Assembly: GCA_964507055.1 (NCBI GenBank)
Contig: CAZDOJ010000001.1
Coordinates: forward strand, 913,313-977,312
From: an uncultured Gammaproteobacteria bacterium
GTDB lineage: Bacteria; Patescibacteriota; Microgenomatia; Levybacterales; UBA12049
DNA: 64,000 bases
Direction of reading: 5' to 3'
The notes below the pieces were generated by a model. That model saw only the letters and a program-made list of their open reading frames with translations, had not been told where the DNA came from and searched no databases. Made by a program: the position numbers and the translations under genes. This document shows, piece by piece, positions 10,879-54,275 of the stretch (its first letter is position 1; every line of letters begins with the position of its first letter).

Positions 10879-10986
10879 GAATACAATATGAGCTTAGAGA
10901 AATTCTTTTTCTAAGTCAATAATCAGATTACAAACTTATTAATCTAGTAGTAAGGTTGCCAGTAACTATTATGCGAAGATAATTCC

Positions 10987-13020: not shown

Positions 13021-13029
13021 TGCTATAAT
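13021..13029 (+). promoter_or_regulatory. extended -10 promoter element TGCTATAAT, 11 nt upstream of the alaS ATG
   Basis: Exact TGnTATAAT. Spacer 13030..13040. ATG at 13041. No SD, so a leader of only about 5 nt is implied. Confidence 0.4.
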
Positions 13030-13040
13030 AATAGTCTACT

Positions 13041-17270: not shown

Positions 17271-17275
17271 CTGCC

Positions 17276-18007
17276 ATGAAAACACAAATCTATAAAAAGG
17301 GAAACCGAAAAGATGTTCGGAAGATTATTCGTTTCGGAGGATTATTCTCATCTATTCTTGGATTGATCATCGGGATGTACACATTCTTCCCACTTATCTC
17401 GTACGAACTCTATATTAAACCGGCTTTTGCAAGCCAGACATTTGCTGCACCAATACCACAAAAAACAATTATTACGCAGGATTATATTCAGAGCTTATTT
17501 AAAAACACTGCGACATCACTTAGAAATCTGGGCACAAATAATTCTCAAAGTTGGATGCCAACAACATATAAAGAGATGGAAGTTGCGTCACAACTCTCCA
17601 ACTATTACCTTTCAATTCCCAAGCTAGGAATCACAAATGCCAATGTTTCGACAATCAGTAACAATGTTGATGAACACTTAGTTCATTTTCCTGGAACGAA
17701 TCTTCCACCAAATCAAGGGAATGCCGCAATCTTTGGACATTCTACCCTTCCACAATGGTTTGATCCAACCAACTATAAAGCAATATTCGCGACAGCACAC
17801 ACACTTCAGATTGGTGATGCAATCAATGTAACAATTAATAATCAAATCTATACATATAAGATTGTCGACATTTCTATTGTTGATCCAGAGCAAGCAACCT
17901 ACTTTGATCAAAATACTGATGGAAGTTACCTCACGCTTGTGACATGCACACCACCGGGAACGATATGGAAACGATTGCTAATAAAGGCTAAACTTGAGAC
18001 AATATAA
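17276..18007 (+). CDS. sortase family transpeptidase
   Basis: N-terminal TM anchor. Conserved His (AAIFGHST) and the catalytic TLVTC motif (LTLVTCTPPGT). Confidence 0.8.
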   Translation: MKTQIYKKGNRKDVRKIIRFGGLFSSILGLIIGMYTFFPLISYELYIKPAFASQTFAAPIPQKTIITQDYIQSLFKNTATSLRNLGTNNSQSWMPTTYKEMEVASQLSNYYLSIPKLGITNANVSTISNNVDEHLVHFPGTNLPPNQGNAAIFGHSTLPQWFDPTNYKAIFATAHTLQIGDAINVTINNQIYTYKIVDISIVDPEQATYFDQNTDGSYLTLVTCTPPGTIWKRLLIKAKLETI

Positions 18008-36679: not shown

Positions 36680-39600
36680 TTATGGAGCAACTTCATTCGA
36701 AGTAATTGATTGAATACGAACAAGTTCTGGAAGATTAACAACAAAATCAAGCCGCTGAACAATTTGCAGTGAAGGGTTCTCGATATTATTACCACAAAGA
36801 TCTCTGTTGTTTTGTAACGCACCACCTGTTTGTGCGGCATTCACAATAAGTACTCCCGCAAGATTTAATCGAAGATCAGCACAACTATTGGTACTTTGCA
36901 TAATAAAGGACTTATCAGTACTGAAAATTCCTGCAAGGTTTGTAGTGGTTGCTGTCGGTGCAGAACCGACAGCTGGCGGAACAATAATATTTCCAGAAAC
37001 TGAGAAAACGACAGTTGAACCTACTGGTGTTAGAATATTTCCTTTAATAGTTAAGTTACCATCGATTATAAAGACATAATGTTGGTTGGCAGGAAATGTA
37101 AAACCATTTAAGAAAACATCACCGGTTGCTGTATAGGTCCCTTGAGGCAAGCTTGCAGGGAGCGTGCAGTTAGAAAGTGTACAAATGGTGGAAAGATTTG
37201 TGGGTGTCGTATCGGATGCTTTTACTTTAGAACTAAGATAGTTATACGATGAAAAAATACCTCCGCTATTTGAAGGAACATATACTTCAGGATAAGAATA
37301 GCCTCCAACTACTTGATTGGTACTTGAAGATTGGCCAGTACCAAATGATGCTTGAGAATCCCCTGAATAAATTATCCCAGGAGTACCACAAGTTACATCT
37401 GAGGTCATCATTGTCTTACCTGCAGGGACAGGATTGTCTATACCGTTATCCATACGCAATTCTCCGCATTGTACCTGCATCCATGGATTAAAGTTGGTAA
37501 GATAATAATTCAAATTTGAGATATCACCAGGAAGTGTTGTAACCGTACCATTTCTGCTTTCTTCATTTCCAAAGGTATTCATAGAGTTTGAATCTGAAGC
37601 ATACTCAGCTTCTATCCAATCTGCAGATCTGGCGATACTTGAAACTCTCACTTCATCAATTTTTCCATCCATACACCACGCATAATTACCTGAACTACAA
37701 GCACCATTTGGATCTGCTCGGCCAATCATATACGGTTCTGAACTTGTATAATTTCTCAGTGTGCCAGAATAAGTGGAGCTATCAAGCAAGACACCATTCA
37801 CATATAGCTTAATACTTTTCGCAACACTATCTATTGTCTGCACAACATACGCCCAGTTACCAGTAGGAAACACTGTCGGCTCTGATTTTGTCACAAAGGC
37901 AGAGCTCGTCGTATTACGACCTGTCGCAAGGTAATACTGCCCATTAACATAGCTTAGTCCACTAAAATTTCCTCGTCTTCCAATAATTGCATAGTCGCTA
38001 AGTCCGGTATTATCGGGAATCGTGTCAGGATTTACCCAAGCACTAAATGTATAACTAGCATTTGTTAGGCCAACAATACTCGCGGGTGAACTTGGGATCG
38101 AAATACCAGTATTTGCAACTTTTCCTCCTGCAAAATCGAGGGCATGTCCAATCTTACCCGTTGTAAAATCTGAAGGCTGAGACGCGGAGACAAGCTTCGT
38201 ACCATTATTTCTATTACTTGTAGAATCGGTAACTGTACTAATATTCCCATCATTTAAATGAGTTACAATTGCATAACTACTATTCCAAACATTGGCGGCA
38301 TTTTGCCCATCAGTTGCCGTCGAGTTGTTATAGTACATCCAAATAAAGTCAGCATTTGAATTTGCATCGATTTGTGGTACTTTCACCCAAAGATCCGAAG
38401 TCCCAGTCTCATCCCATCTTTCAATTTCATGGGACAAGACATTGACGCCATCAGCATCAACAAATCTCACATCTTGTCCCAAATTTTGGGTTTTCGCATA
38501 GTCAATATTTGTACTATTGAGGGAGACTCTCAGTGGGAAATTAACCAAACTTTCAGCGGAAGCTGTATTATTAATAGTAATTTTTCTCCTTGATAGCCAC
38601 TTTGGATCCCACCAATCGGTGGTCGGCTCTTCAGCTGAAATACCATCACTTGTATAGACTTCAATTCCAGAAAGGTTGAAATCTCCTCCAGATTGGAATA
38701 AGGAGAGACTGCCATCACTCACCGTAACATGGTAAGGGCCAAGCTTTTTCCAAGTACCAGCACTCCCGCTTTCGAGATTTGAAGCTTTTGCAATACCTTC
38801 AAAGCCAAGATTATATGTTGTGGATGTAGTATCCTCCCACGTATAGACATATACAGAATAGTCTCCATTTGCAATTGGGATATCAACTGTTAGCTGGACA
38901 TTATTACTCCTCCAAATTGAAGAACGAATCATTTGAGCTTTATTCGTACTAACCGAAGGATTGAGGGTAATACCTTGATTTTGGAAATTCGCCCCGTTAG
39001 TCGTGATGCCAGCTGTCGATTGAGCTTGAAAAGTGACACCATCAACATCAAGTTGTGGTCCATTAAAGTTAATTGCTTTTACCAGTGTTTGAACAGGTAA
39101 TGTCGAACTTGGAGTTCCTTCATAAAGCTGTACATCGTCAACCCAAACAGTTCCTGTTGCTGTCGCAACTTGGAAACCGACAAGTGCATTACTCTTTGTT
39201 TCGGTTGCTTGGAATGTATAGGTAAATTGCTGCCAGTTGGTATTCAGTGATGGAGTCTTTCTCGTATATAGAGTGTATGGCTCATCTGCATCCTGTACTA
39301 CAGCATCAATAGTGCGGTTATTTGACGCCTTAGCCCAAAAGCTGAGTGTATATGTTTTGCCTGAGGTGACAGGGATACCATACGTTGCTAACTCCAGATC
39401 GTGAGGATCTGTAGTGGTGGCTGTCACGGCCACTTGAGCAGAATAAGCACCATGCGTACTCGTAGAATTTGTCGCCGTAAATGTACCATTTGCTGATCCT
39501 CTTTTTTGCAAGAACCAATTTGCAGTTCCTTGTTCAAAACTCCAATTCTGTACAAAATTTTCTCTTGTTGAAGGTGTATTGGTCGGTTCAATTGCCGTTG

Positions 39601-40171
39601 CTCCTGCTGTGAAAACAGCATCGTCAACATAAAATGCATTACCTGCCACGGCTTGTTCCTGTACTACATAAAGTTCAACATTAGTCCTTCCCGAGGATTG
39701 GATCGACATAGTGGAGGTAACTAACTGCCACGAGGTTGTAATATAAACAGGTTGGCCATAAACAGTTCTACTTGCGGAAGACCCACCATTCTCGCGAATA
39801 GCAACATATACTGGCTTACCTGTATTAGAATCCCCACGCACATAGACAGCACCGCTGAATTGTTGACCTACTTGAGGATTTGCAATTGATCCAGCAAATT
39901 GCATCGTGTAGAGATTTCCTGTGGACTGAGTAGCCTTGCACGATCCTGCACCAGAACGAACAGGACTAGTAACACGAGAGATTGTAGCTTGATATCCTGT
40001 AATTCCTGACGTATTTGTGTCGCATGTAGGATTTTGCAATACATTAACGACTGCTGCCCGTGTCCCCGTAAAGAAATCCGAAAACGAAATAATCCCAAGG
40101 AATGTAATGAGAAATGCACTTAGGAAAAACAAAAATGTATGGTGTCTTTTATTAAAGTCTATTTTAAGCAT
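36680..40171 (-). CDS. giant surface protein (1163 aa): signal anchor, CBM4/9-like module, second beta-sandwich, malectin-like domain, DUF2341, LamG/ConA-like lectin domain, C-terminal beta-rich region
   Basis: The N-terminal CBM is paralogous to that of the 10987..12750 peptidase (SGAGSCKAT...AFYVDDAVF). The malectin-like module is paralogous to that of the 8839..10878 hydrolase (LVKAINFNGPQLDVDGVTFQAQ...GGDFNLSGIEVY). DUF2341-like block WDPKWLSRRKITIN...LWVKVPQIDANSNADFIWMYY. LamG block GKIDEVRVSSIARSADWIEAEY. Confidence 0.6.
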   Translation of the reverse strand: MLKIDFNKRHHTFLFFLSAFLITFLGIISFSDFFTGTRAAVVNVLQNPTCDTNTSGITGYQATISRVTSPVRSGAGSCKATQSTGNLYTMQFAGSIANPQVGQQFSGAVYVRGDSNTGKPVYVAIRENGGSSASRTVYGQPVYITTSWQLVTSTMSIQSSGRTNVELYVVQEQAVAGNAFYVDDAVFTAGATAIEPTNTPSTRENFVQNWSFEQGTANWFLQKRGSANGTFTATNSTSTHGAYSAQVAVTATTTDPHDLELATYGIPVTSGKTYTLSFWAKASNNRTIDAVVQDADEPYTLYTRKTPSLNTNWQQFTYTFQATETKSNALVGFQVATATGTVWVDDVQLYEGTPSSTLPVQTLVKAINFNGPQLDVDGVTFQAQSTAGITTNGANFQNQGITLNPSVSTNKAQMIRSSIWRSNNVQLTVDIPIANGDYSVYVYTWEDTTSTTYNLGFEGIAKASNLESGSAGTWKKLGPYHVTVSDGSLSLFQSGGDFNLSGIEVYTSDGISAEEPTTDWWDPKWLSRRKITINNTASAESLVNFPLRVSLNSTNIDYAKTQNLGQDVRFVDADGVNVLSHEIERWDETGTSDLWVKVPQIDANSNADFIWMYYNNSTATDGQNAANVWNSSYAIVTHLNDGNISTVTDSTSNRNNGTKLVSASQPSDFTTGKIGHALDFAGGKVANTGISIPSSPASIVGLTNASYTFSAWVNPDTIPDNTGLSDYAIIGRRGNFSGLSYVNGQYYLATGRNTTSSAFVTKSEPTVFPTGNWAYVVQTIDSVAKSIKLYVNGVLLDSSTYSGTLRNYTSSEPYMIGRADPNGACSSGNYAWCMDGKIDEVRVSSIARSADWIEAEYASDSNSMNTFGNEESRNGTVTTLPGDISNLNYYLTNFNPWMQVQCGELRMDNGIDNPVPAGKTMMTSDVTCGTPGIIYSGDSQASFGTGQSSSTNQVVGGYSYPEVYVPSNSGGIFSSYNYLSSKVKASDTTPTNLSTICTLSNCTLPASLPQGTYTATGDVFLNGFTFPANQHYVFIIDGNLTIKGNILTPVGSTVVFSVSGNIIVPPAVGSAPTATTTNLAGIFSTDKSFIMQSTNSCADLRLNLAGVLIVNAAQTGGALQNNRDLCGNNIENPSLQIVQRLDFVVNLPELVRIQSITSNEVAP

Positions 40172-40173
40172 AA

Positions 40174-43140
40174 TTATTCACATTTGGCCCCTGTTGCACT
40201 ATTGGTATTACATTCTGGTCCAAGCGTAACTTGAAATGATGGAGGGGGTCCATTCAATGGATATGTCATCCTATACCCTGATGTGAGCGGAGAGACAAGT
40301 GAAACTGTATATGTTCCAGGCGGCAAAGCTCCGCTAGAGTATGTTCCATTGGTCGTCTCGACTGTTTTTCTCGCGGGTCCTGAGAAGAAAATAAGCATAG
40401 GATCCGTAATGAGTGTGTCAGGTGAAGCCAATTTTAGATCTTTATCAAAGTCATTTACGATATTTCCAGAAATTGTAAATCCTGTTGCATTTCCAAAATC
40501 AATATTATCGTACGTGTTCCCAGATTCAACGCTTAAGTTATACGATTTGGTATCTGTTGTTTGATACCAGCCTGATTGAACAACTTCCGTAAATACAAAA
40601 TCTTTAGTACACAAACCTGTAAAAGAGAACTTACCTGCTGAATTTGTTTTTGCTGTAATTGGGATATCTAAGTCTTCTGCGGACGCCTGAACTGTCCAGT
40701 TATAAAGAGGGGAATCTCCCCCATCATAAACCTTATTTGTATTTTTGTCTTCAAATATAGTTCCATTAACCACACCTGTTCCAATATCTTCAGCAATACT
40801 TTGGTAAATAGATTCAAGCGTAGAAGTTGATGGAGAATTATAGAATCGTCCTCCATTTGTATCAGCAATCTGCTGCATAAAAATAGGATCGAAAGAACCT
40901 GAACCCTGTCCAATACCAATAACCTGATAGATGATGTTTTGTCCATTAACACCGTTAATTGTCGCAGCCATTGCTGCGTTCTCTGCGGCATCTATTGAGA
41001 CATTGCCACCATTTGATCCTATCATCTGATTTGTCGCACCATCGGTCATGACGATCACAACTTTCTGTGCATTTCTTGTTGAACGTGATAGTTCACCATT
41101 TGCGAGAGCAATACCACATTCTACACATGTTCCTCCACCGCTCGTTGGAATATTTGTAATTGCAGTTTTCATCGCTGAAATATTGGTTGTTAAAGGCTGG
41201 GACACTCTCGTGAAGCTATAATTTGGATAGCTCGTACTTCCTGCGAACTGGACGAGGGAATATTGAGCATTTTTAACATGAGCTGAAACAATATCGATAA
41301 AGCTACTCGCCGCACGTTTTGCAGCAAGAGACTTAGTGAGTCCAGTCGTTGGATCCACTTCGTCCATACTTCCAGAATCGTCAAAGACAAGAACAATATC
41401 AACACCATTTGCACTACATGATCCACCTACTTTTGTTGTCGTTCCTTCTACTATTCCAAAATTAATTGTACGATCTGTGGAAAGTGAGAAATTGAGTGAA
41501 TTTGCAGTAGTACTTCTATATCCTGTTGGTGTATCAACTCGAATTGTATAATCTCCACTTCCTTGATCCGCAAATAAATATGCCCCACTAGCATCAGTCG
41601 TTTTCGGAACTGGCGTACTTTTTGTCAAAGTTACTACCCCACCCTGATAAAGCGGTTCACTAGGGTCAAGCAATCCATTCTTATTTAAATCTATAAACAC
41701 TTTACCAGCAATGTTATAGAGCGTAACCATACCAAATTCAACAGTTTTTGACGTCGTTCCAGTTGATGTCCCAGCTGTAGTAGGATTGGTGAAAGTAACA
41801 GTTTGTGTATTAACTGTCGTACTCTTCTTTTTTGCAGGTAGTGTATAGGTAATTGTATATGTACCAGCGTAAAGATTGGGAAAAGAAAAACTACCAGAGT
41901 TATTCGTAACCGCTGAACCTGTCGCTGTCCCTGAGAGCAAAATATTTACACCTTCTTCAATTGAATCTCCTGACCCCTTTTTACCATCTTCATTTCTATC
42001 TTCGAATATCGATCCTGAAATTGTAAAAAGTGGTATGATTCCAAAATTAAGTGTCCTATTGGGCCCGACTGCAAAATTTTCTTCCGAGGGTGTTGAGGCC
42101 TGATAATTGGCTGGCAAAGGAAACTCCGCATTATATGTACCAGCGAAAAGCTGTGCTGTGTAAGTCCCATCAGAACCACTCCGTGCAGTTATTGTAGCAG
42201 GTCCAGTAAAGGTAATCGTACCACCTGTATAATTGCCATCAGCACTATCATCGGAACCATTTCTGTTGTTATCAAGGAATATTGTCCCAGAAACCGTATA
42301 GTATTGTGCTATACCGAAATTGACTGATTGATTTGCATTCAAAGTCACAGATTTAGGATTTGTACTTGTTGTTTTGTAGCCTCCTGGAACTGCTACTGTT
42401 ACTGTATATGTCCCAGCAAACAAAGAAGGAAATGTGAAGTCTCCGTTGGAATCAGTTGTGGTAGTCGTGGAAGTAGGACCCGAAACAGAAACCGTTATAC
42501 CATTATTTCCAGATTCATCAGTATCTTTTGTTGTATCAATATCGGTATCTGTAAATACATTTCCAGTAAGCGTATGGACAAAACCAATACCAAAGTTTAC
42601 AGTCTTGTTCGACGTTAAAGAAACCGATTGCGGGTTGGTCGAAGTGTTTTTATATCCGTTGGGTACAGTAATCGTCACTGTATAATCTCCTCTTGGTAAG
42701 GTCACTGAGTATCCTCCCGTCAAACTTGTGGTTGTCGTGGTAGAAGATGCACCAGTAATAGTAACTGTCACACTACTAACACCAACTTCAAGAGTATCTT
42801 TATTGCCATTGGCATTGGCATCAACATATACACTTCCCGAAAGAACAGCCGTTGGAATAGGTGTTGGAGTAGGTGTATTAGTCGGAGGAGCTGGTGTCGG
42901 TGTGTTGGAAGGCGTCGGTGTATTGGACGGAACTGCTTGTGCGATAAGATCACCTAATACTCCTTTTTCTGCATTCCTTTCTTTCCCCGGCTGCGGTGAA
43001 ACAAGTTGCTTTACTTGCTGCACCTTTTCAGGATAAAAAATACTTGCTGCACTTGTAATTATGCCTACAAAAACAATTGCTATAAAAATAGTGTTCGTAA
43101 TTTTTAATATATTTAATTGAGGCTTTTTAAACATGCACAA
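40174..43140 (-). CDS. giant surface adhesin-like protein (988 aa): signal anchor, PT linker, tandem SdrD-B/CnaB-like beta-sandwich repeats flanking a von Willebrand factor A domain
   Basis: vWA MIDAS motif VDIVLVFDDSGSMDE...VVIVMTDGATN. At least 8 repeats of the type GxVFxDxNxNGxxD...GV.V.L...TD..G.Y.F. PT-rich linker TPTPSNTPTPAPPTNTPTPTPIPT. Confidence 0.65.
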   Translation of the reverse strand: MCMFKKPQLNILKITNTIFIAIVFVGIITSAASIFYPEKVQQVKQLVSPQPGKERNAEKGVLGDLIAQAVPSNTPTPSNTPTPAPPTNTPTPTPIPTAVLSGSVYVDANANGNKDTLEVGVSSVTVTITGASSTTTTTSLTGGYSVTLPRGDYTVTITVPNGYKNTSTNPQSVSLTSNKTVNFGIGFVHTLTGNVFTDTDIDTTKDTDESGNNGITVSVSGPTSTTTTTDSNGDFTFPSLFAGTYTVTVAVPGGYKTTSTNPKSVTLNANQSVNFGIAQYYTVSGTIFLDNNRNGSDDSADGNYTGGTITFTGPATITARSGSDGTYTAQLFAGTYNAEFPLPANYQASTPSEENFAVGPNRTLNFGIIPLFTISGSIFEDRNEDGKKGSGDSIEEGVNILLSGTATGSAVTNNSGSFSFPNLYAGTYTITYTLPAKKKSTTVNTQTVTFTNPTTAGTSTGTTSKTVEFGMVTLYNIAGKVFIDLNKNGLLDPSEPLYQGGVVTLTKSTPVPKTTDASGAYLFADQGSGDYTIRVDTPTGYRSTTANSLNFSLSTDRTINFGIVEGTTTKVGGSCSANGVDIVLVFDDSGSMDEVDPTTGLTKSLAAKRAASSFIDIVSAHVKNAQYSLVQFAGSTSYPNYSFTRVSQPLTTNISAMKTAITNIPTSGGGTCVECGIALANGELSRSTRNAQKVVIVMTDGATNQMIGSNGGNVSIDAAENAAMAATINGVNGQNIIYQVIGIGQGSGSFDPIFMQQIADTNGGRFYNSPSTSTLESIYQSIAEDIGTGVVNGTIFEDKNTNKVYDGGDSPLYNWTVQASAEDLDIPITAKTNSAGKFSFTGLCTKDFVFTEVVQSGWYQTTDTKSYNLSVESGNTYDNIDFGNATGFTISGNIVNDFDKDLKLASPDTLITDPMLIFFSGPARKTVETTNGTYSSGALPPGTYTVSLVSPLTSGYRMTYPLNGPPPSFQVTLGPECNTNSATGAKCE

Positions 43141-43229
43141 GAAGAAGAGACTTCTCTCCCTATACTCATTATAGGTACTTACCCCGCCTCAAGCAACGAT
43201 GCATTTTTAGATAAAATTTAAAGAATTTC

Positions 43230-45638
43230 TTAGGAGATATCTGCGTGAAGTGCACCAGTTCCGTCGATTGTAAAGTTTACTTTCTTGCCTCGATCGATTT
43301 CTTTGGTCAATCGTTTCTGAGCAATCATATCTTCAACAGTATCCTGTAAATATCGACGTAACGGTCGAGCACCAAAATCTTTATCAAATCCTTCTTGCGT
43401 AATCTTTTCGATGACTGCATCATCAAAAGAAAGTGTAATATCTTGTTTTGCTAATGATTCTATCAGCTGATCGAGTAGCAGCTTTGTCACTGCGATCACT
43501 TGTTCCGGACCAAGTGGTTTAAATGTTACAACATCGTCAAAACGATTAAGTAATTCTGGTTTGAAAATGCCTTTTGTTTGTAGTTGTTCCAAAAGACGTT
43601 GCTCAAATTTCTTATCTATTGGTGTACCCTTTTCAACTTCTTCACGGATGAACTCAGATCCTGCATTTGATGTTGCGATGATAATAGCATTACGGAATGA
43701 AACAGTCGCTCCTTTATTATCTGTTAATCTTCCATCATCAAGCACTTGAAGGAAGAGATTGTGAATAGCAGGATTTGCTTTCTCAAATTCATCAAGAAGG
43801 ATAAGCGAGGCTGGATTATCATGGATTTTATCAGTCAATTGTCCACGATCTTCTCCTTCACCAGGAGCAGCTCCAAGAAGTCGTTTCAATCCATTTTCAT
43901 CTGTATATTCACTCATATCCAAACGAATCATTCGTTGTTCACCACCATAATAGAACTGTGCCAGTGCTTTCGCTGTTTCTGTTTTACCAACACCAGTTGG
44001 TCCCAAGAAAAGGAATGAGATTGGCCGTTCGCTTGTCGTCATCCCAGAGCGAATACGACGCATTGCTTCACTTATTGCAACAACTGCCGTATCTTGTGCG
44101 ATAACTCGTTCATGCAATTTATCTTCCAAATGCAATAATAAATTAATCTCCTGGCCTGTAGGAAGTGCTATGGCGACATGACTTGTTGCTTCTACTTTCT
44201 TTACAACATCTTGCTCACTGACCATTTTGCGATGCGTCTTTTCAAAGGCAGGTCGTTCTTTTTCCTGAGAGACAGCATTGGCTACAGTTTCGAGCAATGA
44301 TACGGCACTTCCCGGAAGTACTTGATCTTGGAAGAACCGTTCTGCTAGCTCAACGGCACTTACAAGTGCTCGATAACTTATAATTACTCTATATTTATCT
44401 TCAATTTTTGCAGCCTCGCCTAACGCCATTTGAATAGCATCCGCAGGCTCAACAGGTTTTAATTCAACAACGGTAAAGGCTTCTTTCAGAGGATTTTTTT
44501 CCATATATTTCTTGTACGTACCAGTTGTCATCGTCGCAACCATGGGAACATTACCGCTTTTTAGATATGGGAGAAGAGCTCCTGAAAGATCCAAACCATA
44601 AGAAGTCGCTCCAAGAATATTTTGGAAATCAGGAATATACATGAAGACATCATTGGCATGAGATATTTCAGCAATAATGTTTTGCAGTCGTGCTTCAAGA
44701 TCATTTCTATTTCCAGCACCCGCAGTCAAAGCACCTACTAATAATTGAAAGATTCGCTTGTGATTCAAATAACCACCCAAATTGCCACTAAAGCTGTGAT
44801 ATGCCAATGCTCTTACTAAATTCTCTTTTCCTGCACCGATATCTCCCACGATCAAAACATTATTATTTTCAATTTTGGTGAGACCTTCAAGCATTGTTTT
44901 AAATTCTGCTTCTCTGCCACCAATATGCGGTTCTGTCTGCAATGCATAATTTGTAAACAGAGCTGTATATTTCTTTGTCTCTGGTGTCCATCCGGAATTG
45001 AGTGCTTCACCGATACCACTTCCAGTAAATTTGATTCGTACAGGTTTGGGATTCTCTTCATCTGGCATATCAAGTCGAACCCAATACAGAATATTGTACA
45101 GATCAGTTATTTTAAGTTGCTTTGCAAAAAGAATCTTTGTGTCTTTTTCAATTAAGAATAAATATGCTACAAGCACATCAAGAGTTGTTACATATTTCGC
45201 TTTAAAAGTTTGTGCTGTTTGAAATGCACTTTGGGCAAGAAGTTTTTTATCAACATCATTTACCACTAATTCTTTACTTGTGATGTTGGCTTTTTGAAGG
45301 ACTAATTTTACTTGAGGGTAAGTGATTAAGCGTTTAATAAGCGTTGACGTATTTGGTTCTGTAATAAATCCATATAAAGCAGCGAGTGTAAACGATTCAT
45401 ACATATTTTCTTCTTTATTCTTTGACACTTCTATTGTTGGAACAGCACGACTCACTTTATAGTGAAAAAATACTTCAAACATTACAAACAAATTAAAAAG
45501 AAATACGCTAACCTTTGGAGGGATATCATATGCGATCTGATAAAGAATAAGCGAAAAAAGCATTGCAAAAATGACAAGCCTAATACTTCGTACAAGTGCG
45601 GTTCGATAAAAACGATATAGTCGGACAGATAATTCCAT
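43230..45638 (-). CDS. membrane-anchored Hsp100/Clp-family AAA+ ATPase with degenerate D1 and intact D2
   Basis: Two N-terminal TM helices (LVIFAMLFSLILYQIAY; VFLFNLFVMFEVFF). A Clp-N-like repeat. D1 Walker A degenerate (IVGDIGAGKEN) with no DE Walker B. D2 canonical ([34 protein letters not shown]). No ClpP-docking IGF loop. No M-domain. Confidence 0.7.
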   Translation of the reverse strand: MELSVRLYRFYRTALVRSIRLVIFAMLFSLILYQIAYDIPPKVSVFLFNLFVMFEVFFHYKVSRAVPTIEVSKNKEENMYESFTLAALYGFITEPNTSTLIKRLITYPQVKLVLQKANITSKELVVNDVDKKLLAQSAFQTAQTFKAKYVTTLDVLVAYLFLIEKDTKILFAKQLKITDLYNILYWVRLDMPDEENPKPVRIKFTGSGIGEALNSGWTPETKKYTALFTNYALQTEPHIGGREAEFKTMLEGLTKIENNNVLIVGDIGAGKENLVRALAYHSFSGNLGGYLNHKRIFQLLVGALTAGAGNRNDLEARLQNIIAEISHANDVFMYIPDFQNILGATSYGLDLSGALLPYLKSGNVPMVATMTTGTYKKYMEKNPLKEAFTVVELKPVEPADAIQMALGEAAKIEDKYRVIISYRALVSAVELAERFFQDQVLPGSAVSLLETVANAVSQEKERPAFEKTHRKMVSEQDVVKKVEATSHVAIALPTGQEINLLLHLEDKLHERVIAQDTAVVAISEAMRRIRSGMTTSERPISFLFLGPTGVGKTETAKALAQFYYGGEQRMIRLDMSEYTDENGLKRLLGAAPGEGEDRGQLTDKIHDNPASLILLDEFEKANPAIHNLFLQVLDDGRLTDNKGATVSFRNAIIIATSNAGSEFIREEVEKGTPIDKKFEQRLLEQLQTKGIFKPELLNRFDDVVTFKPLGPEQVIAVTKLLLDQLIESLAKQDITLSFDDAVIEKITQEGFDKDFGARPLRRYLQDTVEDMIAQKRLTKEIDRGKKVNFTIDGTGALHADIS

Positions 45639-46132: not shown

Positions 46133-49100
46133 CTATTCAATCTCTTCTTGTCGAGTCTGTGGAGCTACATAATTAACAGGTCTAAAACTGTTAGGAATTC
46201 CAGAGTAATTGTAAGCCGTTTGAGGAGACATTGCCGCACCATTTGAAGCGACTCCATTTGCAGGAGGTGGTGTGCTATCTACTGCACCATTCGGCAAACT
46301 TGTTGGTGCTGGCGTTTGGAATACAGGGCTCGTATTCTCTGCCTGAGCAGGAGCCGCAGGTGATGCCGGAGCAACTGGCACTGCTGCTGGATCATTCACA
46401 ACTGCACCAGCAGGGGCCGGAGCAACTGGTTCTGAACCTACAGGAGTATTCACTGGAGCATCAGCTGGAGTTGTTGAGTCTGTTGGTTGTTGAGATTGAT
46501 CTTGTGTCGAACCTTGTGCATCCTGCGGTGCATTAGGATCTGTTCCTTCGACAGGTTTATCTGTTGGAGGTTGATCTCCACCATCGGTAGGTTGTCCTTC
46601 TTGTGCTGCAGGTGCATCATCGACTGCGATATTCTTCACACCAGCTGTCTCGAGAACGAGAATAGCAATCTCATCCTTTTGTCCTGCAGCTGCCACCATA
46701 TCTTCAACCATCTTTTCTAGTTCCTCATATTTAACGGTATCCTTAACAGCCAATACTGCTGCTGCTAATTGATTGCCTTTTTGACTTGCTTCATTCAATT
46801 TCGCTTGAACTGATGTGTACTTCTCTTTATCAGATGGTGTCTCTGCTGTAACAGGATTATTGATAAGCAAGAGGTGCTTCTTAAAGTTACGCAGTGGTTC
46901 ATGTGCTAATTCTTCTTCGATAACTTTGAGAATCTCAGTAGCCAATGGATCGCCTGAGTCTTTTGCAGCTTGTAGTTCTTTCTGAATAGCTGCGATGTCA
47001 TCATCAGAAGTTATATCTGTAATTGCCAAGATCTTACTTGCAAGCTCATTATTCTCTTTCTTTGCCTTCTGCATCTTTTCATATACAAGATTAAACTGGT
47101 CTTTCACTTCAGGATCAGCGAGATAAAGTGGATTAATAAGCTGCTTTAGAACATTCTTGAATTTCGTGACAGGCTCTTCGTTGTGTGCTTCTTCCGCTTC
47201 TTCTACAAGCTCACTATTTACTGCTGCAAGGATATCTTCAGCCAAGCTATCTTCATTTTCTTTAGCAGCCTTCAAATCTGTCATCAAATCCTCAATTGCA
47301 GAATCGGAAGTTGTATCATTAACCGCGAGAATCTTAGTAGCCAAAGCATTTCCTCGTTGGCTCTCCATATTGAGTTTCTCATGGAGTTCCATGAACCGGA
47401 TCTTCTTATTATTATCTTTGATATCGTCAGGGTGAATGATTTCAAGAAGGATCTTTTTTAGCTTCAAAGACGCTTGGATCTGTTGTGCCATACTATTGGC
47501 AAGCTCAATAATTTCAAATGCTAAATTGTCACCCTTTGCCTTTGCTTCTTCAATCTGTTTACGCAATGTTTGAATCTGTTTCAAATCAGTAGAGACAGTC
47601 ACTTCTAAAATACTGCTTGCCATTGCATTCTTATCTGTTCGAGCTTGGATTAACTTGTCATGAAGGACAATAAATCGTGACTTATCAACTGTACTTGTAA
47701 TGTTGTCTGGATTTGCCAAGTTGATCAAAACAGTTCTGAACTGTTCATCAGATAATGGCATAACTGTTGCACCAGCTCCACCTTTGTTAAAGACGAACTC
47801 ATTTGTATTATCACTGTAATCAATAACAATCGTGTCCCCAGCAACAAATTTCTTTGAAATGATCGCTAATGCGATAGGATTCTCAATCGCTGTTTGGACA
47901 AGTCTTCGGAGAGGTCGAGCACCATAGACAGGATCATATCCATCTTTCGCAAGCTGATTGATAGCCTTTTCTGTGATCTGCAGATTGTAGCCTTGCTCTT
48001 TCAAAAGCTTTGCAGTCTTTGCGATCGCCAAACGTGCGATTCCAGCCATATGTTCTGGTTGCAATGGCTTAAAGATAACAACTTCATCAAAACGATTAAG
48101 GACTTCCGGACGGAAGAATTTAATAAGTTCTTCGCGAACTTTAACCTGCATATCCTTAAAGATTTTTTCAAACTCTTCTGGAGTTCTCTTTGCTTTTGAA
48201 TCCACGTTGCTCAAAAATTGCTGGATAATGCCACTTCCGATATTGGAAGTACAAATAACGATAGTATTCTTAAATGAAATTGTATTACCTTTGTTATCAG
48301 TCAAACGTCCATCTTCAAGCAGTTGGAGCAAGATATTAAATACATCAGGATGAGCTTTTTCGATTTCATCAAGAAGTACGATAGAATAAGGTTTCTTTCG
48401 AACAGCTTCAGTTAATTGGCCACCTTCTTCATATCCAACGTATCCTGGAGGTGCACCAATAAGTTTTGCAACTTCATGCTTCTCCATGTATTCAGACATA
48501 TCCATACGAGCCATTGCATCATCACGTCCGAAAAGAAGTTCTGCAAGTGTCTTTGCAAGTTCGGTTTTACCTACACCGGTAGGACCAAGGAATACGAAAG
48601 ATGCGATAGGGCGATTTGCTGCAGCTAAACCGATTCTTCCACGTCGTACAGCTTCCGAAACAGCACCAACAGCTTCTTCTTGATCAACCATTCTATGATG
48701 GATTCGGTCCTCAAGCTTAAGAAGCTTTTCACTTTCATCTTCAGTAAGCTTCGTAATTGGAATACCAGTCCAAGCACTGACGACTTTTTCAATATCAGCC
48801 TTTTTGATTGATGTATCTCCTCCACCACGATTACCACCGTCTATTTGGAGCTTAACTTCAGAAGCAGCTTCATCGAGAAGGTCGATCGCCTTATCTGGAA
48901 GGTATCTTTCACCAATATATTTTTTAGAAAGTTTGACACACTCTTTCAAAGCATCATCTGGGATTTGAATTCTGTGGAATTTCTCGTACTTTGGTCGAAT
49001 AACCTTAAGCATCTCGAACGCATTCTCTTCACTTGGTTCATCTGCAGTGACAGGCTGGAATCGTCGTTCAAAGGCCTTATCTTTCTCAAAATTCTTTCGA

Positions 49101-50428
49101 TATTCAATAGTTGTTGTTGCACCAATAAGCTGGAAATGACCACGTGCCAAATGAGGCTTGATGATGTTTGCTGCATTCATACCTTCACCCTCGCCAGTTC
49201 CCATCAAAGCATGAATTTCATCAATAAAGAGAATGATTCGATTATTTGAACCAAGTACCTCGTTAATAACACCTCGCATACGTTCTTCAAATTCTCCTCT
49301 GTGACTTGCACCAGCAACTAACGACGCCACATCAAGTTGGAAAATCCTTTTTTCCTGAAGATCTTTTGGAACTGCACCCTGTACAATTTTTTGTGCAAGC
49401 CCTTCGACTAATGCTGTTTTACCAACACCAGGTTCACCGATAATAATCGGATTATTTTTTGTTCTTCGAAGCAAAACATGGACCATACGATCAACTTCTT
49501 TATCACGCCCAGCAACGGGGTCAAGGCGTCCCGCTCGAGCTTCTTCAGTAAGATCAATACCATATTTTTCAAGAACTGTCTTCTTCCCAAAATTGCTATT
49601 AGGGTTTTTTGAAAGCTTCTCGACCATTTGCTCTTTCTTTAAGTTGTGCTTTTCCAAAAGTTTACCAGTGGTATATTTAGGATCAAAGAGTACTATTAAT
49701 ATATCTTCAGGTGCTATAAAGTTTGCTCCATGCATTTTTGCATCTCGATATGCTTGATCGAATACTTCTTGAGCGGTTTTACTCAGCGTTGGTTGGCCTT
49801 TATAAACCCCCATTTTTTCAGATGCTTGAATTTCTTTAGAAATTTGTCCACCATCAGCATTCATTTCCCCAAGCATTGCATACAACTGTTGGTCATAAAG
49901 AAGTCCAATAAGAACTTGATCAGGTTCAATGAACTGTTGCTTTATACGCTTTGTCTCTTCTTGAGCGTGTGTCAAAGCTTGTGTTGCACGAGGGTCAAGG
50001 TGACTGAGAGCTGAAAGATCCGATTGACCTGCTGCGGGATGTGCTGTTGCACCATCAGATCCTGCAGGTGCTTGTCCCGGTTGACCTGGCTGAGCAGCCT
50101 GACCTGGTTGTGCGTTTGGATCTGGTTGTCCTTGTTGTGGGTTTTGACCATCTTGAGATGCTCCTTGTTGTACTGGCTGACCGGAAGCATCGGTTTGAAC
50201 AGGAGCATTTGGATCAGCAGGACCTGATGAAACTGGGGTTTCGTTTGTCGGAGACTGTACTGCATTCGGATCAGATGGAGCCCCAGTTGGGACAGGAGCA
50301 GCAGTGCTTGCATTTGGGTCAGCAGGAGATTGAGCCTGTGTATTTTGAGGCTGATTTTGAGCACCATTTGGTTGAGGAGTTATACCATCTGGTTGATCTT
50401 TTTTCTGGTTAAAAATGTTTCCGAACAT
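46133..50428 (-). CDS. giant Hsp100/Clp-family double-AAA+ ATPase (1431 aa) with low-complexity termini and four C-terminal repeats of about 95 aa
   Basis: Clp_N repeats. D1 [17 protein letters not shown] / [11 protein letters not shown]2 [19 protein letters not shown] / [15 protein letters not shown] / GARPLRR. Only about 20 aa separate the D1 small subdomain from D2, so there is no ClpB or ClpC M-domain. No IGF/IGL ClpP loop. PQG-rich residues 1-140 and 1270-1431. Confidence 0.75.
46619..47776 (-). repeat. intragenic tandem protein repeats (4 x about 95 aa) in the Hsp100 giant; same family as in the adjacent membrane protein tail
   Basis: Units begin L[AI]NP or IIHP and contain GN.LA..IL.V.D.TS...I..L...L.AAK..GD.LA.EIL (residues about 898-1270). 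Confidence 0.7.
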
Positions 50429-50528: not shown

Positions 50529-53500
50529 CTAATTTTTAGCACTTTCGTCTTCTTTTTTATCATTCTCTGTTGCAGACAATTCTTGTGCTGATTCAGACTT
50601 ATTTGTATCGACTGTAATAGCAACTTTACCTTCTTCGTCTTTTTGCAATTCTGCTATAACATTCTTTCCGGCTTCTGCCTTGGCTTTTAAGTAGCCCATA
50701 ACTTCTTGTGATGAGAATCCTCCAAGCATAAGCATTGGCAATATCTCAGAGACCTTCTCCATTCCTTCTGCTTGCTTTTGCGTATCAGATGAACCGAGCA
50801 ATTCAATAGTTTCTTCTACCATCTTTACATCGGATTCGATCCATGCGATACGACCTGTTGCTTCACTACCAAATTCTGCAGGAACTGGAAGTGTTCTATA
50901 ATTTTCTTCCCATAGCTTTTTAACTTCTTCATAATCTTCATCAGAAACTGGTTGAAGTTTGTTATCTTCAGGAGCGATACTATCATCAGGGAGATGCTCA
51001 AGAATTGATTGAGCAACTGGTTCTCCCTTTGCGTTTGCATCTTTTAGTTTCTCACTAAGTTTTTCTATGTCATCTACTGAAGTAACATCTTTTGTAGCAA
51101 GAATCTCTTTTGCTAACTCATTTCCTTCTTCACTCGCCTTAGTGAGAGAATCATGTAATTCAGTAAATCGTTTCTTATCTGCCTCTACCGTCGACTTTGT
51201 AGGATCTGCAATCTGAGAAAGAACAGTCTTTACAGTATCAGATTTCTTCCCTTGAGCCTTCATTGATGCTCGAAGAAGAACCGCAGCAGTAACATTACCT
51301 TTCTGTTTTTCATCTAATAGGGTCTGGCGTACGTTCTCAAACTTAGATCTTTCAGTGCTATCTGTTATCGCTGAAGGATTTGCAATCTTACTAAGAACGC
51401 TTTGTACTTTCTCTATCTCTGCTGTCCGTGAAGCATCTTTCTTCAATGCTCTTGTTTCAAACTGTGCAATATCTCTCAGTTTTGGAACCTGTAAATTAAC
51501 CATATTGAATATTTCATTCGAGATTTGAGGAGCAGAGATAGTTGTATGATTTGTGACATTTGTTACATTTCCGAGAGAACTAAGAGGACTCTCATCTTCA
51601 TCATCAGCAGAACTCGAGCTTGAACCAGCTGAGCTACTTGAATCAGATGAATCTGTTTGCTCCATAGATGCAACCATAGTCTTTGCAGCATGAGTGGATG
51701 TTGTATTAACACTAATCTTATCTTCTTCGTCTGCAGCCAATGTCTTGGATACATCTTTCGCAGCATCCTGCTTTGCTTGGAGATACGAGACGATTTCATT
51801 TTGTGAAAAACCTCCAACCATAAGGAAAGGTAAAATGTTTGAAACTTGCTGCATACCTTCTTTGACTTCTTCCTCATTGGTTGACGAGAGTAATCCAATA
51901 GTTTCATCAATACTTTCGATATCATCTTTAATCCACTCTGATCGAGTACCAGCCATACCTTGAGGTACTTCGAGGTTTTGGTAGTTCTGCTTCCACATAT
52001 CTCGAACTGCCTGATAGTCTTCTTTACTAACATTCTGTACCCGATTAGTAGTAGGCAATGAAGCAGTCTTTTGTGCCAATGCCGCAACTTCTGCTGCCAC
52101 TGGTTCACCTTTTACTTGAGCCTCTTGAATCTTCTGTTGTAATGCCTCAATTTCAGACACTGATGTTTTATCACTTACTTTAAGAATTGATGTAGCAAGT
52201 TGGTTTCCTTGAGAGCTTGCTTTTTCAAGAGTTGCTTTCAATTTGGTAACAGCCTGTTTATCTGCAGTGTGTGTTACAGAACCAGGATTCGCCATCTGTG
52301 AAAGAACATTCTTAATTGATGAAGTTGCTTGAGCTTGTTGCTGTACTGTTGTTGAAACTGATTTTCCAAGATGAGTATTAGAGACTTGACTCAATTGCCC
52401 CTGAATCTTCTCAATTTCTTTATCTGATGTCTTATCACTTACTTTAAGAATTGATTGAGCAAGTTGACTTTTTTCTGTGGTCTTTGCCCCCTGGCTTTCT
52501 TTAACAAGCATTCCATTGAGCTTTGTCATCTTGTCACGATTAGTTACGTTCGCAAGTGAAGGGTTTGCCATTTGCTTTAAGGATTCACGCATCTGTTGAT
52601 TTGAGACTTGTGTATTGCGTTTCGCAGTTACGCTTGCAGCATTCATGATTGAGTTAGCAAGAAGATTACCTTTCTCATTATTTGTAGAGATATTCTCATG
52701 AATCTCAACATATCTATCTCTTTCTACAGTATTTGTAACTGATACCGGATTTGCGATTCTCTCAAGAGTCTGTGTCATTCGAGTAGTTTCTTGTTGCTTC
52801 GATTGGTCACGAGACATAAGAGCCGCATCGTATTTAGCAATGTCACGAAGACTAGGAACTTTAACATTTGCAGCACTGAGCACTTGGGCATTAACAGTTG
52901 CACTATTAATATTTGCCAATGGTATGGAGGTCGGCTGTGCAAAGGTTGCCTGCATATTCTGAACATTCAATTCCTTAGCTGCACCTGCAGGTCCAGGACC
53001 CAAATCCTTTGGTATTGCAAATTTCTTGGCAAAAGGTAATGCAATTGCGGCACCACCAGGAGATTCGGACTTACCACCGCCTCCAGGAGGTTGCTTATTC
53101 GTTGATGCCATATTAACAAGTGTTTTCATCACTGCTGTATCACCAGGAGCGAAATTGGAAGCATAATCCAGGAAAATCTGTAGCAAAATCCATGGAAGCA
53201 GAATAACAATCCACAACATGATAAGAGAAACAACATAAAGTGCGAAAGTTTCGATCAAGTTAACACTATTCGTAGGCGTAACGAACTGTCGTGGTCCACC
53301 AAGAAGAATATTAACAGCAGTAGGGAAGACAATTTGGCTTGCATTACCAATATTTGAATTAACGAATACAAGTGGGATCTGATTCTTCCAAAGATACACT
53401 AAACCATTAAGGAAGATCGCAAATAAAGGTGCATACAATAACCATCGGAAAAATTCTCCGATCCAGATCTTTGCTGTATTTCGAACAGGATAATAAAGGA

Positions 53501-54275
53501 GCAAGATTGGGAAAATTGGAGAAACAATAATGAAGAACCAAAGAATAATTTTTCGGACCAAAAGTAAGAAGACCATTACGAAATATGTCAGTGCAGTTAG
53601 TTTGGTCAATAAGAGAGAGATAAATGCAGACTCAGCATATTGATCCCCAAGCAAACGTAAACCTACAAAAGTTCGATAATCCCATCCTACATAAAGAAGA
53701 TCCTTTTGTGAGATACAATCCGGTGGACATGGATTATTGATATTTGAACGTAGAAAGAAACCTTGGATCAAATCGGTAAACTGATAGAAGAACTGCAGTA
53801 ACGAGTACGAGAATACAATAAGTAAGACAACAGCCACAAATCGTGGAATAAAACGCATGATTGTAAGACTTTTACCTCTGGTAATAATAATAACCATTGA
53901 GGTTGCAAGAATAACAACAAATAAGAGTGGTACTACGATATAAAGAACGATCAATGACCAATACTGTGCGATTGGATTGTTACTGTCATCGCATTGTCTG
54001 TCGGTTACACGATTTACACAAACCCAGTTGTAATTCTTCAACGTCCAGTCAAGAAAAAGTCCTGCACGAGCAGCGTTCTTACCGATAAATGTAACTTCAG
54101 GATCAATAACCCAAATAGACTGAGAGGCTGCAGAAGATCCAGTTGTAGGTTGCTGTTGTCCAGGCTGCAATTGCGTACCGGGACCAGGACCACCGGCAGC
54201 AAAAGTATTAGCTGGAGAAGAAAACGCGATAATCGCAAAAATGAACGTGAATAGAATGGACAGAATTCTTTTCAT
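50529..54275 (-). CDS. large polytopic membrane protein (1248 aa): signal peptide, Cys-containing exo-domain, about 7 TM, then a hydrophilic tail of about 870 aa built from two duplicated super-units. Tentatively VirB6/TrbL-like
   Basis: TM segments lie between residues about 105 and 370. A Gly-rich linker (PPGGGGKSESPGG) follows. The tail carries ANP...GN.LA..IL.V.D.TS repeats (ANPVSV, ANPSLAN, ANPGSV, ANPSAI, ADPTKS). The motif W..NY..L.VP...G....WI..D....EETI.LL.S.....EGM..VS.ILP.LM.GGFS is duplicated (755-842 and 1113-1205). Confidence 0.6.
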   Translation of the reverse strand: MKRILSILFTFIFAIIAFSSPANTFAAGGPGPGTQLQPGQQQPTTGSSAASQSIWVIDPEVTFIGKNAARAGLFLDWTLKNYNWVCVNRVTDRQCDDSNNPIAQYWSLIVLYIVVPLLFVVILATSMVIIITRGKSLTIMRFIPRFVAVVLLIVFSYSLLQFFYQFTDLIQGFFLRSNINNPCPPDCISQKDLLYVGWDYRTFVGLRLLGDQYAESAFISLLLTKLTALTYFVMVFLLLVRKIILWFFIIVSPIFPILLLYYPVRNTAKIWIGEFFRWLLYAPLFAIFLNGLVYLWKNQIPLVFVNSNIGNASQIVFPTAVNILLGGPRQFVTPTNSVNLIETFALYVVSLIMLWIVILLPWILLQIFLDYASNFAPGDTAVMKTLVNMASTNKQPPGGGGKSESPGGAAIALPFAKKFAIPKDLGPGPAGAAKELNVQNMQATFAQPTSIPLANINSATVNAQVLSAANVKVPSLRDIAKYDAALMSRDQSKQQETTRMTQTLERIANPVSVTNTVERDRYVEIHENISTNNEKGNLLANSIMNAASVTAKRNTQVSNQQMRESLKQMANPSLANVTNRDKMTKLNGMLVKESQGAKTTEKSQLAQSILKVSDKTSDKEIEKIQGQLSQVSNTHLGKSVSTTVQQQAQATSSIKNVLSQMANPGSVTHTADKQAVTKLKATLEKASSQGNQLATSILKVSDKTSVSEIEALQQKIQEAQVKGEPVAAEVAALAQKTASLPTTNRVQNVSKEDYQAVRDMWKQNYQNLEVPQGMAGTRSEWIKDDIESIDETIGLLSSTNEEEVKEGMQQVSNILPFLMVGGFSQNEIVSYLQAKQDAAKDVSKTLAADEEDKISVNTTSTHAAKTMVASMEQTDSSDSSSSAGSSSSSADDEDESPLSSLGNVTNVTNHTTISAPQISNEIFNMVNLQVPKLRDIAQFETRALKKDASRTAEIEKVQSVLSKIANPSAITDSTERSKFENVRQTLLDEKQKGNVTAAVLLRASMKAQGKKSDTVKTVLSQIADPTKSTVEADKKRFTELHDSLTKASEEGNELAKEILATKDVTSVDDIEKLSEKLKDANAKGEPVAQSILEHLPDDSIAPEDNKLQPVSDEDYEEVKKLWEENYRTLPVPAEFGSEATGRIAWIESDVKMVEETIELLGSSDTQKQAEGMEKVSEILPMLMLGGFSSQEVMGYLKAKAEAGKNVIAELQKDEEGKVAITVDTNKSESAQELSATENDKKEDESAKN
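50646..52868 (-). repeat. intragenic duplicated super-units (2 x about 330 aa) carrying the ANP/GNxLAxxIL repeat family in the membrane-protein tail
   Basis: Super-unit A is residues about 470-845 (VKVPSLRDIAKYD...). Super-unit B is about 927-1210 (LQVPKLRDIAQFE...). Confidence 0.65.

Follow-up and report, generated by a model that had tools for sequence, protein, structure and literature searches.

A vWA stalk protein and a lectin-module protein encoded side by side in Candidatus Levybacteria: a candidate bipartite surface adhesin

How do Patescibacteria of the Microgenomates type make contact with their surroundings? To our knowledge, almost no experimental knowledge bears on this question, and we address it here through one locus in a 64,000-nucleotide stretch of DNA (the window; contig CAZDOJ010000001.1, positions 913,313 to 977,312 of the forward strand). 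The locus consists of two adjacent genes, A (36680..40171; 1163 residues) and B (40174..43140; 988 residues), both on the (-) strand, as are all features of these proteins given below by window position. A sequence-only reading of the window had reported two giant open reading frames here, and both are present. The RpoB encoded in the window falls in the same 90%-identity cluster as MBA3724442.1 of Candidatus Levybacteria; by this marker the source organism is a member of Ca. Levybacteria, in agreement with the Patescibacteria origin proposed earlier. Here, we show using profile searches, sequence alignment, comparison of loci and structure prediction that B and the C-terminal domain of A are collinear with single protein chains of other genomes, that the lectin modules of A are reshuffled at one orthologous locus, and that the last ~285 residues of A, left undescribed in the sequence-only reading, are a conserved family that defines this protein. 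With moderate confidence, we read B and A together as a bipartite cell-surface glycan-binding adhesin of the Levybacteria cell.

Two genes collinear with a single chain

Residues 96-988 of B align at 44% identity with residues 164-1060 of the single-chain homologue P0228, and the C-terminal domain of A aligns with residues 1063-1354 of the same protein, right behind the part that aligns with B. In a second homologue, P0020, the alignment with B ends at residue 980 and the A domain starts at residue 983, and a third, P0021, is arranged likewise: its junction reads '...NGPPPSYNVTVGATCNTNSAPGAVCTS|GNITTLSFGITDFFPW', while B ends in '...NGPPPSFQVTLGPECNTNSATGAKCE*' and A resumes with '...GDISNLNYYLTNFNPW'. 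The consensus of 67 members of the domain family runs from a '...NGPPPSFxVTVGxxC...C' repeat directly into 'GNIxNLNFGI..PW', and in the single-chain homologues the B-type terminal repeat directly precedes the beta-solenoid that this domain is predicted to form. The ~870 residues of signal peptide and lectin modules in A thus stand exactly at a domain boundary of a chain that is continuous elsewhere. As the single-chain form and the form in which an SdrD_B repeat is followed by the domain are the common state, the arrangement in the window is read as a fission, with B and A each looking like one half of an ancestral single-chain protein.

The spacing of the genes is tight. The TAA stop codon of B is followed by 2 nucleotides and then by the ATG of A, and gaps of 2-61 nucleotides separate the two genes in all five genomes in which the pair was compared (see below). 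Gene callers place the start of B two codons downstream, at the ATG at 43134, which gives a protein of 986 residues. Upstream of B, a promoter-like TTGCTT-17 nt-TATAAT element was read by eye at 43168..43196, (-) strand; an automatic promoter scan omits it, and its -35 hexamer agrees at just three of six positions. The pair is embedded in housekeeping genes, with two Clp/Hsp100-type ATPases, DnaK and DnaJ on the upstream side and NusA, IF-2 and PNPase on the downstream side. GC content is flat across the window (0.36-0.42), so the locus is not marked as foreign DNA.

The N-terminal half of the single chain is represented by B, in which a hydrophobic segment (residues 9-38, 43027..43116) is followed by a Pro/Thr linker, five SdrD-B repeats, a vWA domain and two further SdrD-B repeats. 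Repeats 1-5, beta-sandwiches of the SdrD-B/CnaB type, make up the stalk (residues 99-575, 41416..42846), which matches SdrD in the PDB with E 2.5e-11; repeats 6-7, assigned by motif, occupy residues 790-988 (40177..40773) up to the C-terminal end quoted above. Pfam SdrD_B (PF17210) matches B in six stretches (E 3.4e-55, 185.5 bits), and by motif there are seven repeats, starting at residues 102, 193, 285, 376, 479, 793 and 892; the family assigned earlier therefore stands, whereas the count of at least eight repeats does not. Between the fifth and sixth repeats lies the vWA domain (residues 581-780, 40801..41400), recognized by Pfam VWA (E 3.1e-15, 57.3 bits versus a cut-off of 23.8) and VWA_2 (E 5e-13). 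The DxSxS motif reported earlier is part of what reads as a complete metal ion-dependent adhesion site (MIDAS), a predicted metal site formed by D587-x-S589-x-S591, T671 and D700.

A Kyte-Doolittle scan finds no other hydrophobic segment in B than that at residues 9-38. This agrees with the earlier description of an N-terminal transmembrane segment as the only anchor in so far as the segment is the sole candidate, but it may serve as a signal anchor or be cleaved off as a signal peptide. In A, B and two secreted enzymes of the window, C and D, hydrophobic segments are N-terminal only and none is C-terminal, and an LPXTG-like motif with transmembrane segment and basic tail is absent from all four; the lack of an LPXTG motif in B noted from the letters is thereby borne out.

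A reshuffled lectin head on a constant domain

What does A carry in front of its C-terminal domain? A Sec-type signal peptide (residues 1-39, 40055..40171; ...TGTRA|AV), which aligns with that of D, precedes two carbohydrate-binding modules (CBMs) of the CBM4_9 type, CBMa (residues 41-195, 39587..40051) and CBMb (residues 199-358, 39098..39577; best Pfam stretch 205-335). These are followed by a module that we call X (residues 359-512, 38636..39097), by DUF2341 (residues 565-629, 38285..38479; Pfam E 6.8e-13) and by Laminin_G_3, a domain of the concanavalin A-like lectin fold (residues 698-853, 37613..38080; Pfam E 2.5e-20). In A, C and D alike, a classic AxA-type cleavage site can be read immediately ahead of the first module. 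The CBM4/9, DUF2341 and LamG assignments of the sequence-only reading all exceed the Pfam gathering scores: CBM_4_9 (PF02018) matches in two stretches with E 9.7e-17 and 62.1 bits versus 25.9, DUF2341 (PF10102) scores 49.3 bits versus 23.4, and Laminin_G_3 (PF13385) 73.6 bits versus 27.6. CBM4 modules in the PDB match at E 2e-9 to 1e-6, and CBMb finds the CBM4 of laminarinase 16A at E 2e-9.

The X module had been described as malectin-like, which finds support only as a resemblance of the predicted fold, one that CBM35 and CBM6 share, and not as membership of the Pfam family. Neither X copy in the window matches any Pfam model, Malectin (PF11721, PF12819) included, even at E<=10, and one of 14 homologous X modules has a Malectin match (E 0.1). 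An AlphaFold2 (AF2) model built from 14 sequences, with a predicted local distance difference test score (pLDDT) of 94.6, finds as its top PDB matches in Foldseek malectin-like domains from the plant proteins ANX1/2 and FERONIA (E 2e-6, template modeling score (TM) 0.73-0.74), followed by CBM35, CBM6 and CBM61 (E 1e-5 to 1e-4), and a profile of X against PDB sequences weakly prefers the CBM35 2vzp (E 0.17). As modeled, X is thus a beta-sandwich of the malectin/CBM35 type that resembles malectin in fold and is not a demonstrable member of that family. Outside the Candidate Phyla Radiation (CPR), X homologues are found in proteins that combine glycoside hydrolase family 140 (GH140), PA14 and type IX secretion system (T9SS) parts, in dockerin proteins and as tandem copies on Bacteroidota-type proteins, and X stands beside GH140 also in unrelated bacteria, for example in P0011. 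Such a distribution would be in keeping with a module for carbohydrate binding that is often passed on together with GH140.

Four other genomes (L005, L008, L009 and L010) share the order Clp-ATPase, B, A, NusA, IF-2 with the window. Their B orthologues are 57-86% identical to B, whereas the A orthologues, of 862-1365 residues, have only the C-terminal domain in collinear position throughout (57-90% identity). In front of it, the window and L005 have CBMa, CBMb, X and DUF2341/LamG in this order, L009 has CBMa, DUF2341/LamG and X, L008 has CBMb, DUF2341/LamG, CBMa and X, and L010 has CBMb and X. The module shuffling proposed from the window alone can therefore be observed directly, with modules differing in order and number at one syntenic locus. 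Even between the window and L005, identity falls from 90.5% in the C-terminal domain to 83.8% in X, 77.5% in CBMb, 63.8% in DUF2341-LamG and 40.5% in CBMa. CBMa is more similar to the CBM of D in its own genome (47.7%) than to its L005 counterpart; the N-terminal module has therefore been replaced in one lineage.

The enzymes C and D lie at some distance in the same window. C (8839..10878) is a predicted GH140-like hydrolase (Pfam Apiosidase, PF13204, E 1e-102, 344 bits) with a C-terminal Collagen_bind_2 domain (98 bits), and D (10987..12750) combines CBM_4_9 (41.1 bits), a BSP peptidase with HESTH at residue 350, and a ricin-B lectin; the hydrolase and the HExxH peptidase named earlier at 8.8-12.8 kb are thus both recovered. 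An X paralogue stands at the N-terminus of C (10291..10746, (-) strand) and a CBM4_9 paralogue at that of D (12148..12612, (-) strand), each placed by BLASTP and tblastn. In BLASTP, residues 361-512 of A align ungapped with residues 45-196 of C over 152 residues at 61% identity (E 1e-58), and residues 4-202 of A align with residues 10-207 of D at 44% identity (E 2e-43); the globular CBM alone, as a tblastn query, finds the D copy at 49% identity (E 2e-42). As CBM and X are folded modules and not Pro/Thr linkers, the paralogy keeps its significance apart from low-complexity sequence. The conserved strings quoted earlier are present with minor substitutions, as L[IV]KA[VI]NFNG... and GGDFNLSG[IM]E[VI]Y.

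These duplications are, judging by their divergence, ancient. The X copies of A and C share 62% nucleotide identity and 42% at third codon positions, and a single 68-nucleotide stretch, at 76% identity, matches at the DNA level. The earlier statement that modules were duplicated and recombined within this genome accordingly holds for the shuffling, but not for its setting, which is old and within the lineage. No template/variable repeat pairs like those of diversity-generating retroelements and no inverted repeats were found within the window; hypermutation and recent gene conversion were considered and rejected, given the lack of inverted repeats and the sole DNA match of 68 nucleotides.

The constant part of A is its C-terminal domain (residues 880-1163, 36683..37534), which ends in an invariant ...E-V-A-P. 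It has no Pfam match at E<=10 and no NCBIfam model, and an exhaustive HMMER search collects 970 cluster representatives at E<=1e-3, 380 of them at E<=1e-30. The domain ends at most 5 residues from the protein C-terminus in 145 of 151 proteins of 255-1577 residues, and a stand-alone secreted form of ~310 residues (signal peptide plus domain) is found in the family. Among the invariant positions are R254, D273 and E291, the polar positions W28/Q30, two pairs of Cys residues and the EVAP at the end; the paired conserved cysteines fit an extracellular protein. Among 67 members the partner domains are SdrD_B (40/67), vWA (3/67), CBM96, F5/8-C and others. In cluster look-ups, the sole named member is OGH37688.1, a hypothetical protein of Ca. 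Levybacteria in the cluster of one family member, and a genome scan with a single family protein found only 2 loci.

An AF2 model of the domain (mean pLDDT 71, above 85 in the core at domain residues 105-280) predicts a helix followed by a beta-solenoid, with ~100 conserved N-terminal residues poorly modeled. In Foldseek, ice-binding proteins of the DUF3494 family take the first seven places among the PDB matches and most of the first 15 (best E 7e-3, TM 0.37-0.50), the ComZ pilin solenoid ranks eighth, and the best match in BFVD is again a DUF3494 protein. At the sequence level, a 19-sequence profile weakly matches the DUF3494 protein SfIBP (6bg8) among PDB sequences (E 0.025), a match that is gone with a more diverse 27-sequence profile, which finds nothing there, and a profile of full-length members matches only SdrD. 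Pfam Ice_binding (PF11999) is found in 1 of 19 members (E 0.0039, 17.3 bits versus a cut-off of 28.7), and DUF7305, of which the literature searched makes no mention, gives weak matches in 4 of 19 (best E 0.0015). We therefore do not claim sequence homology with DUF3494, as the 6bg8 match is unstable and the Pfam score is below its cut-off; going by the model, whose resemblance to these proteins is weak, we call the domain a DUF3494-like beta-solenoid at fold level only.

Are stalk and beta-solenoid also associated elsewhere? They are, in a second type of locus. L016 comes from the same sample as the window organism, and its beta-solenoid protein, P0117, lies on the window's own contig, which at 1.32 Mb makes up the whole genome; the gene order there is a ~400-residue cohesin-like protein, a vWA+SdrD-B protein, a 248-residue SdrD-B protein, P0117, another vWA+SdrD-B protein, another ~400-residue protein and a cohesin. 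The 248-residue protein, which is encoded directly before P0117, ends in a repeat that shares 55% identity with the C-terminal 66 residues of B. L012 and L017 have the same cluster, with the beta-solenoid gene directly behind a vWA/SdrD-B gene, which in L016 is one gene further upstream, and in L017 and L012 one or two GH140 genes come right after the stand-alone beta-solenoid gene. vWA/SdrD-B stalks, beta-solenoid and GH140 are thus associated in two locus types and in fusions.

The cohesin-like clusters (L016 4719..14896; L017 5240..17950; L012 2446..13338) have features of their own. The C-terminal ~190 residues of the ~400-residue paralogues match the C-terminal part of the neighboring vWA/SdrD-B proteins, the clusters also hold a ~200-residue protein with a Pfam Cohesin domain, and the metagenomic protein P0010 joins an X module to a dockerin, which hints, from sequence, at an assembly of the cohesin-dockerin type in Levybacteria.

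What the pair may do

In the bipartite adhesin that we favor, the ancestor would have been a single chain with an N-terminal membrane or signal segment, an SdrD-B stalk into which a vWA domain with MIDAS is set, and a distal beta-solenoid of ~285 residues, a form that persists in relatives. A cassette with its own start codon, a signal peptide and lectin/CBM modules would then have inserted at the very point where the stalk repeats end and the beta-solenoid begins, leaving B as stalk and vWA domain and A as signal peptide, two CBM4_9 copies, X, DUF2341-LamG and beta-solenoid. One promoter would serve both genes across the 2-nucleotide gap. At the cell surface, B may provide the stalk and a metal-dependent vWA site, and A an exchangeable lectin array together with the conserved beta-solenoid; glycan specificity would be set by the lectin head, which recombination reshuffles between lineages. 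CBMs of the same types may steer the GH140-like hydrolase and the BSP-type peptidase, presumably to the same glycan-rich target, for which a host envelope, extracellular polymeric substances (EPS) or a plant or algal polysaccharide are candidates.

Several points weigh against such an adhesin. Its role is read from sequence and models. The canonical signal-peptidase site in A means that A could be released into the medium, the N-terminus of B may likewise be cleaved instead of serving as an anchor, and contact between B and A after the split is something we infer. The direction of the fission is suggested by the commonness of fused forms and not by a rooted phylogeny. The beta-solenoid is conserved far above what would be expected of a ligand-specific tip, and its stand-alone secreted form of ~310 residues would fit an enzyme or another autonomous function at least as well. 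The sequence-only reading had taken the carbohydrate-binding repertoire as a sign of an episymbiotic lifestyle; with the same CBMs on a GH140-like hydrolase and a peptidase, polysaccharide scavenging fits equally well.

Some of these points lead to a different assignment, in which A is a secreted multi-CBM enzyme with a catalytic module of a new kind in its C-terminal beta-helix, for example one that acts on polysaccharides as lyase or hydrolase, and B a separate vWA adhesin or display scaffold. Variable CBMs joined to one constant domain are the standard layout of carbohydrate-active enzymes (CAZymes), which C and D follow with the same CBMs, and the constant domain of A is highly conserved, with invariant polar residues. 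Stand-alone proteins of signal peptide and domain occur and directly adjoin GH140 genes in L017 and L012, and one family member has a weak Beta_helix match. However, neither sequence nor fold matches any lyase or hydrolase known, the fold searches lead instead to DUF3494 ice-binding proteins, which are not enzymes, and to the pilin solenoid of ComZ, and in most members the domain forms the distal end of a long stalk of SdrD-B repeats, a place more typical of a binding tip. We consider this assignment rather unlikely.

Could B and A be mere neighbors that became functionally independent after the insertion, one a stalk protein with a vWA domain and the other a lectin secreted in free form, whose order reflects the synteny of core genes (clp, nusA, infB)? 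The pair is indeed embedded in highly syntenic housekeeping genes in 5/5 genomes, and a motif by which B and A might dock to each other was not identified. The gaps of a few to a few tens of nucleotides in all five genomes speak for a closer tie, as does the vWA/SdrD-B gene directly upstream of the beta-solenoid gene at an unrelated locus in L012 and L017 (one gene further in L016), and single-chain fusions of the two parts occur. Independence therefore seems unlikely to us, somewhat more so than an enzyme.

A reading of the pair as an adhesin for ice or cold surfaces like MpIBP or SfIBP_1, with the C-terminal domain of A as a genuine ice-binding module of the DUF3494 type, is very unlikely. 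The fold searches, with DUF3494 proteins as the seven best PDB matches and the best BFVD match, speak in favor of this reading, as do the 19-sequence profile match to 6bg8 and the single Ice_binding match (E 0.004), but all these matches are below curated thresholds and that to 6bg8 is lost with the 27-sequence profile. Ice-binding proteins have repetitive Thr/Ser/Ala faces, unlike the strongly conserved specific residues of this family, and nothing points to a cold habitat.

The analogy drawn in the sequence-only reading, in which B would be an adhesin at the tip of a pilus assembled by sortase, is hardly credible: a vWA domain flanked by CnaB/SdrD-B-type domains resembles tip pilins of the RrgA/GBS104 type and a sortase gene lies in the window at 17276..18007, but A-D carry no LPXTG-type sorting signal, the neighbors of the pair are clp, nusA and infB, a backbone pilin gene is absent nearby, and the sortase is ~23 kb away and paired with another gene, of 786 residues, in a pairing that recurs elsewhere. 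This sortase, the sole one in the window ((+) strand; Pfam Sortase, E 1.5e-20), stands directly behind the 786-residue gene (14910..18007 region, (+) strand), which adjoins alaS, and the same trio is found in L013 (784 residues). The 786-residue protein has one central hydrophobic segment, a weak Baseplate_J-like match and no obvious LPXTG tail.

Returning to the bipartite adhesin, a wider proposal can be attached to it, which we put forward as speculative and consider rather unlikely: that the beta-solenoid marks an undescribed surface apparatus common in Levybacteria and other Microgenomates, made of vWA/SdrD-B stalks, beta-solenoid, GH140-like enzymes and cohesin-like proteins, in which lectin heads recombine to retarget glycans or hosts and the beta-solenoid serves for recognition or anchoring as a conserved module of a new kind, or else has a new catalytic fold. 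Should the beta-solenoid turn out to be a new module for binding or catalysis, a large set of CPR surface proteins now called 'hypothetical' would gain an annotation from it; if it proves not to be, the locus is an example of an ordinary modular lectin adhesin. The locus is a well-defined unit for experiments: its stalk/vWA protein is conserved, and the sugar-binding head of the partner protein is reshuffled among close relatives. The constant end domain defines about a thousand uncharacterized protein clusters. The exact-boundary split would illustrate cleanly how, in nature, an inserted cassette can divide a gene, and it names two proteins to co-express.

Neighboring genes and relation to known systems

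Directly upstream of B, an 802-residue Clp/Hsp100-type ATPase (43230..45638, (-) strand) has an N-terminal hydrophobic segment at residues 13-40, possibly a second one, and is apparently membrane-associated by this criterion. Its orthologue, likewise of 802 residues, stands directly upstream of B in L005, L008 and L009, and the L010 copy is cut by the contig end; it was not counted as part of the system, since it is absent from the other loci of family members. Further upstream, a ClpC-like protein of 1431 residues (46133..50428, (-) strand; 1427 residues in L005) has Clp domains to about residue 870, then about four tandem, helical-looking repeats of ~90 residues ('...KILAV.D.TSD...') and a Pro/Ala/Gln-rich end. 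Still further upstream lies a 1248-residue protein (50529..54275, (-) strand) with a signal peptide, about five hydrophobic segments in its first 375 residues and a sub-threshold Ldt_C match as its sole family match.

The interval between alaS and rpoB, which in the window (8839..14888) holds the GH140-like hydrolase and the BSP peptidase, has other contents in L013 (1..19807), namely the single-chain vWA/SdrD-B/beta-solenoid protein P0021, a 1385-residue M23 peptidase and a small LamG protein; it looks like a variable island for secreted proteins. A conserved protein of ~300 residues, with an N-terminal transmembrane segment and no known domain, overlaps the start of P0021 in L013 (7190..8074) and of P0020 in L015 (647..1570); the two copies are 60% identical, and the window has no counterpart. 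Two sister-genome assemblies (L011, OZ246394.1; L012, CAZLSZ010000027.1) are titled 'uncultured Gammaproteobacteria', which is probably a taxonomic mislabel, as gene content, synteny with the window and the RpoB cluster of the window point to Patescibacteria.

How does the pair compare with known surface proteins? With the SdrD/MSCRAMM stalk adhesins known from Gram-positive bacteria, B shares SdrD-B repeats in tandem, which would hold a ligand-binding domain at a distance from the cell. B differs from these adhesins in that it lacks an A region of the N2-N3 'dock-lock-latch' type, SD repeats and an LPXTG anchor; its hydrophobic segment is N-terminal only, and the NCBIfam MSCRAMM model scores 73 bits on B versus a cut-off of 2500. 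The RTX adhesin MpIBP and SfIBP_1 (6bg8) follow a similar logic, in which a long beta-sandwich stalk leads to lectin or vWA modules and, close to its distal end, to a beta-solenoid. The pair, in contrast, is much smaller and divided over two polypeptides, its beta-solenoid is not recognizable as DUF3494 by sequence, and Pfam detects neither RTX repeats nor a type-I secretion signal in A or B. With modular CAZymes carrying CBM4/9, CBM35/CBM6 or malectin-like modules, the window shares the use of the same CBM types on hydrolase, peptidase and A, whereas A has no recognized catalytic domain and its constant domain is an uncharacterized beta-solenoid.

The literature searched gave nothing specific on CPR proteins that combine vWA and lectin domains or on Levybacteria adhesins. 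The closest description is of large secreted DUF2341 proteins of Patescibacteria, FhaB-type exoproteins of >4000 residues, for which host interaction and rapid domain reshuffling have been proposed (PMC11809585). A resembles these as a large secreted DUF2341 protein, and modular lectin/DUF2341 surface proteins with reshuffled domains are in this sense already under discussion for Patescibacteria (PMC11809585). A and B differ from them in being defined by a C-terminal beta-solenoid and by the pairing with a vWA stalk, neither of which is described there. What is new in the present locus is the unmodeled C-terminal family of ~970 clusters, the split at an exact domain boundary, and the reshuffling of lectin heads at one orthologous locus.

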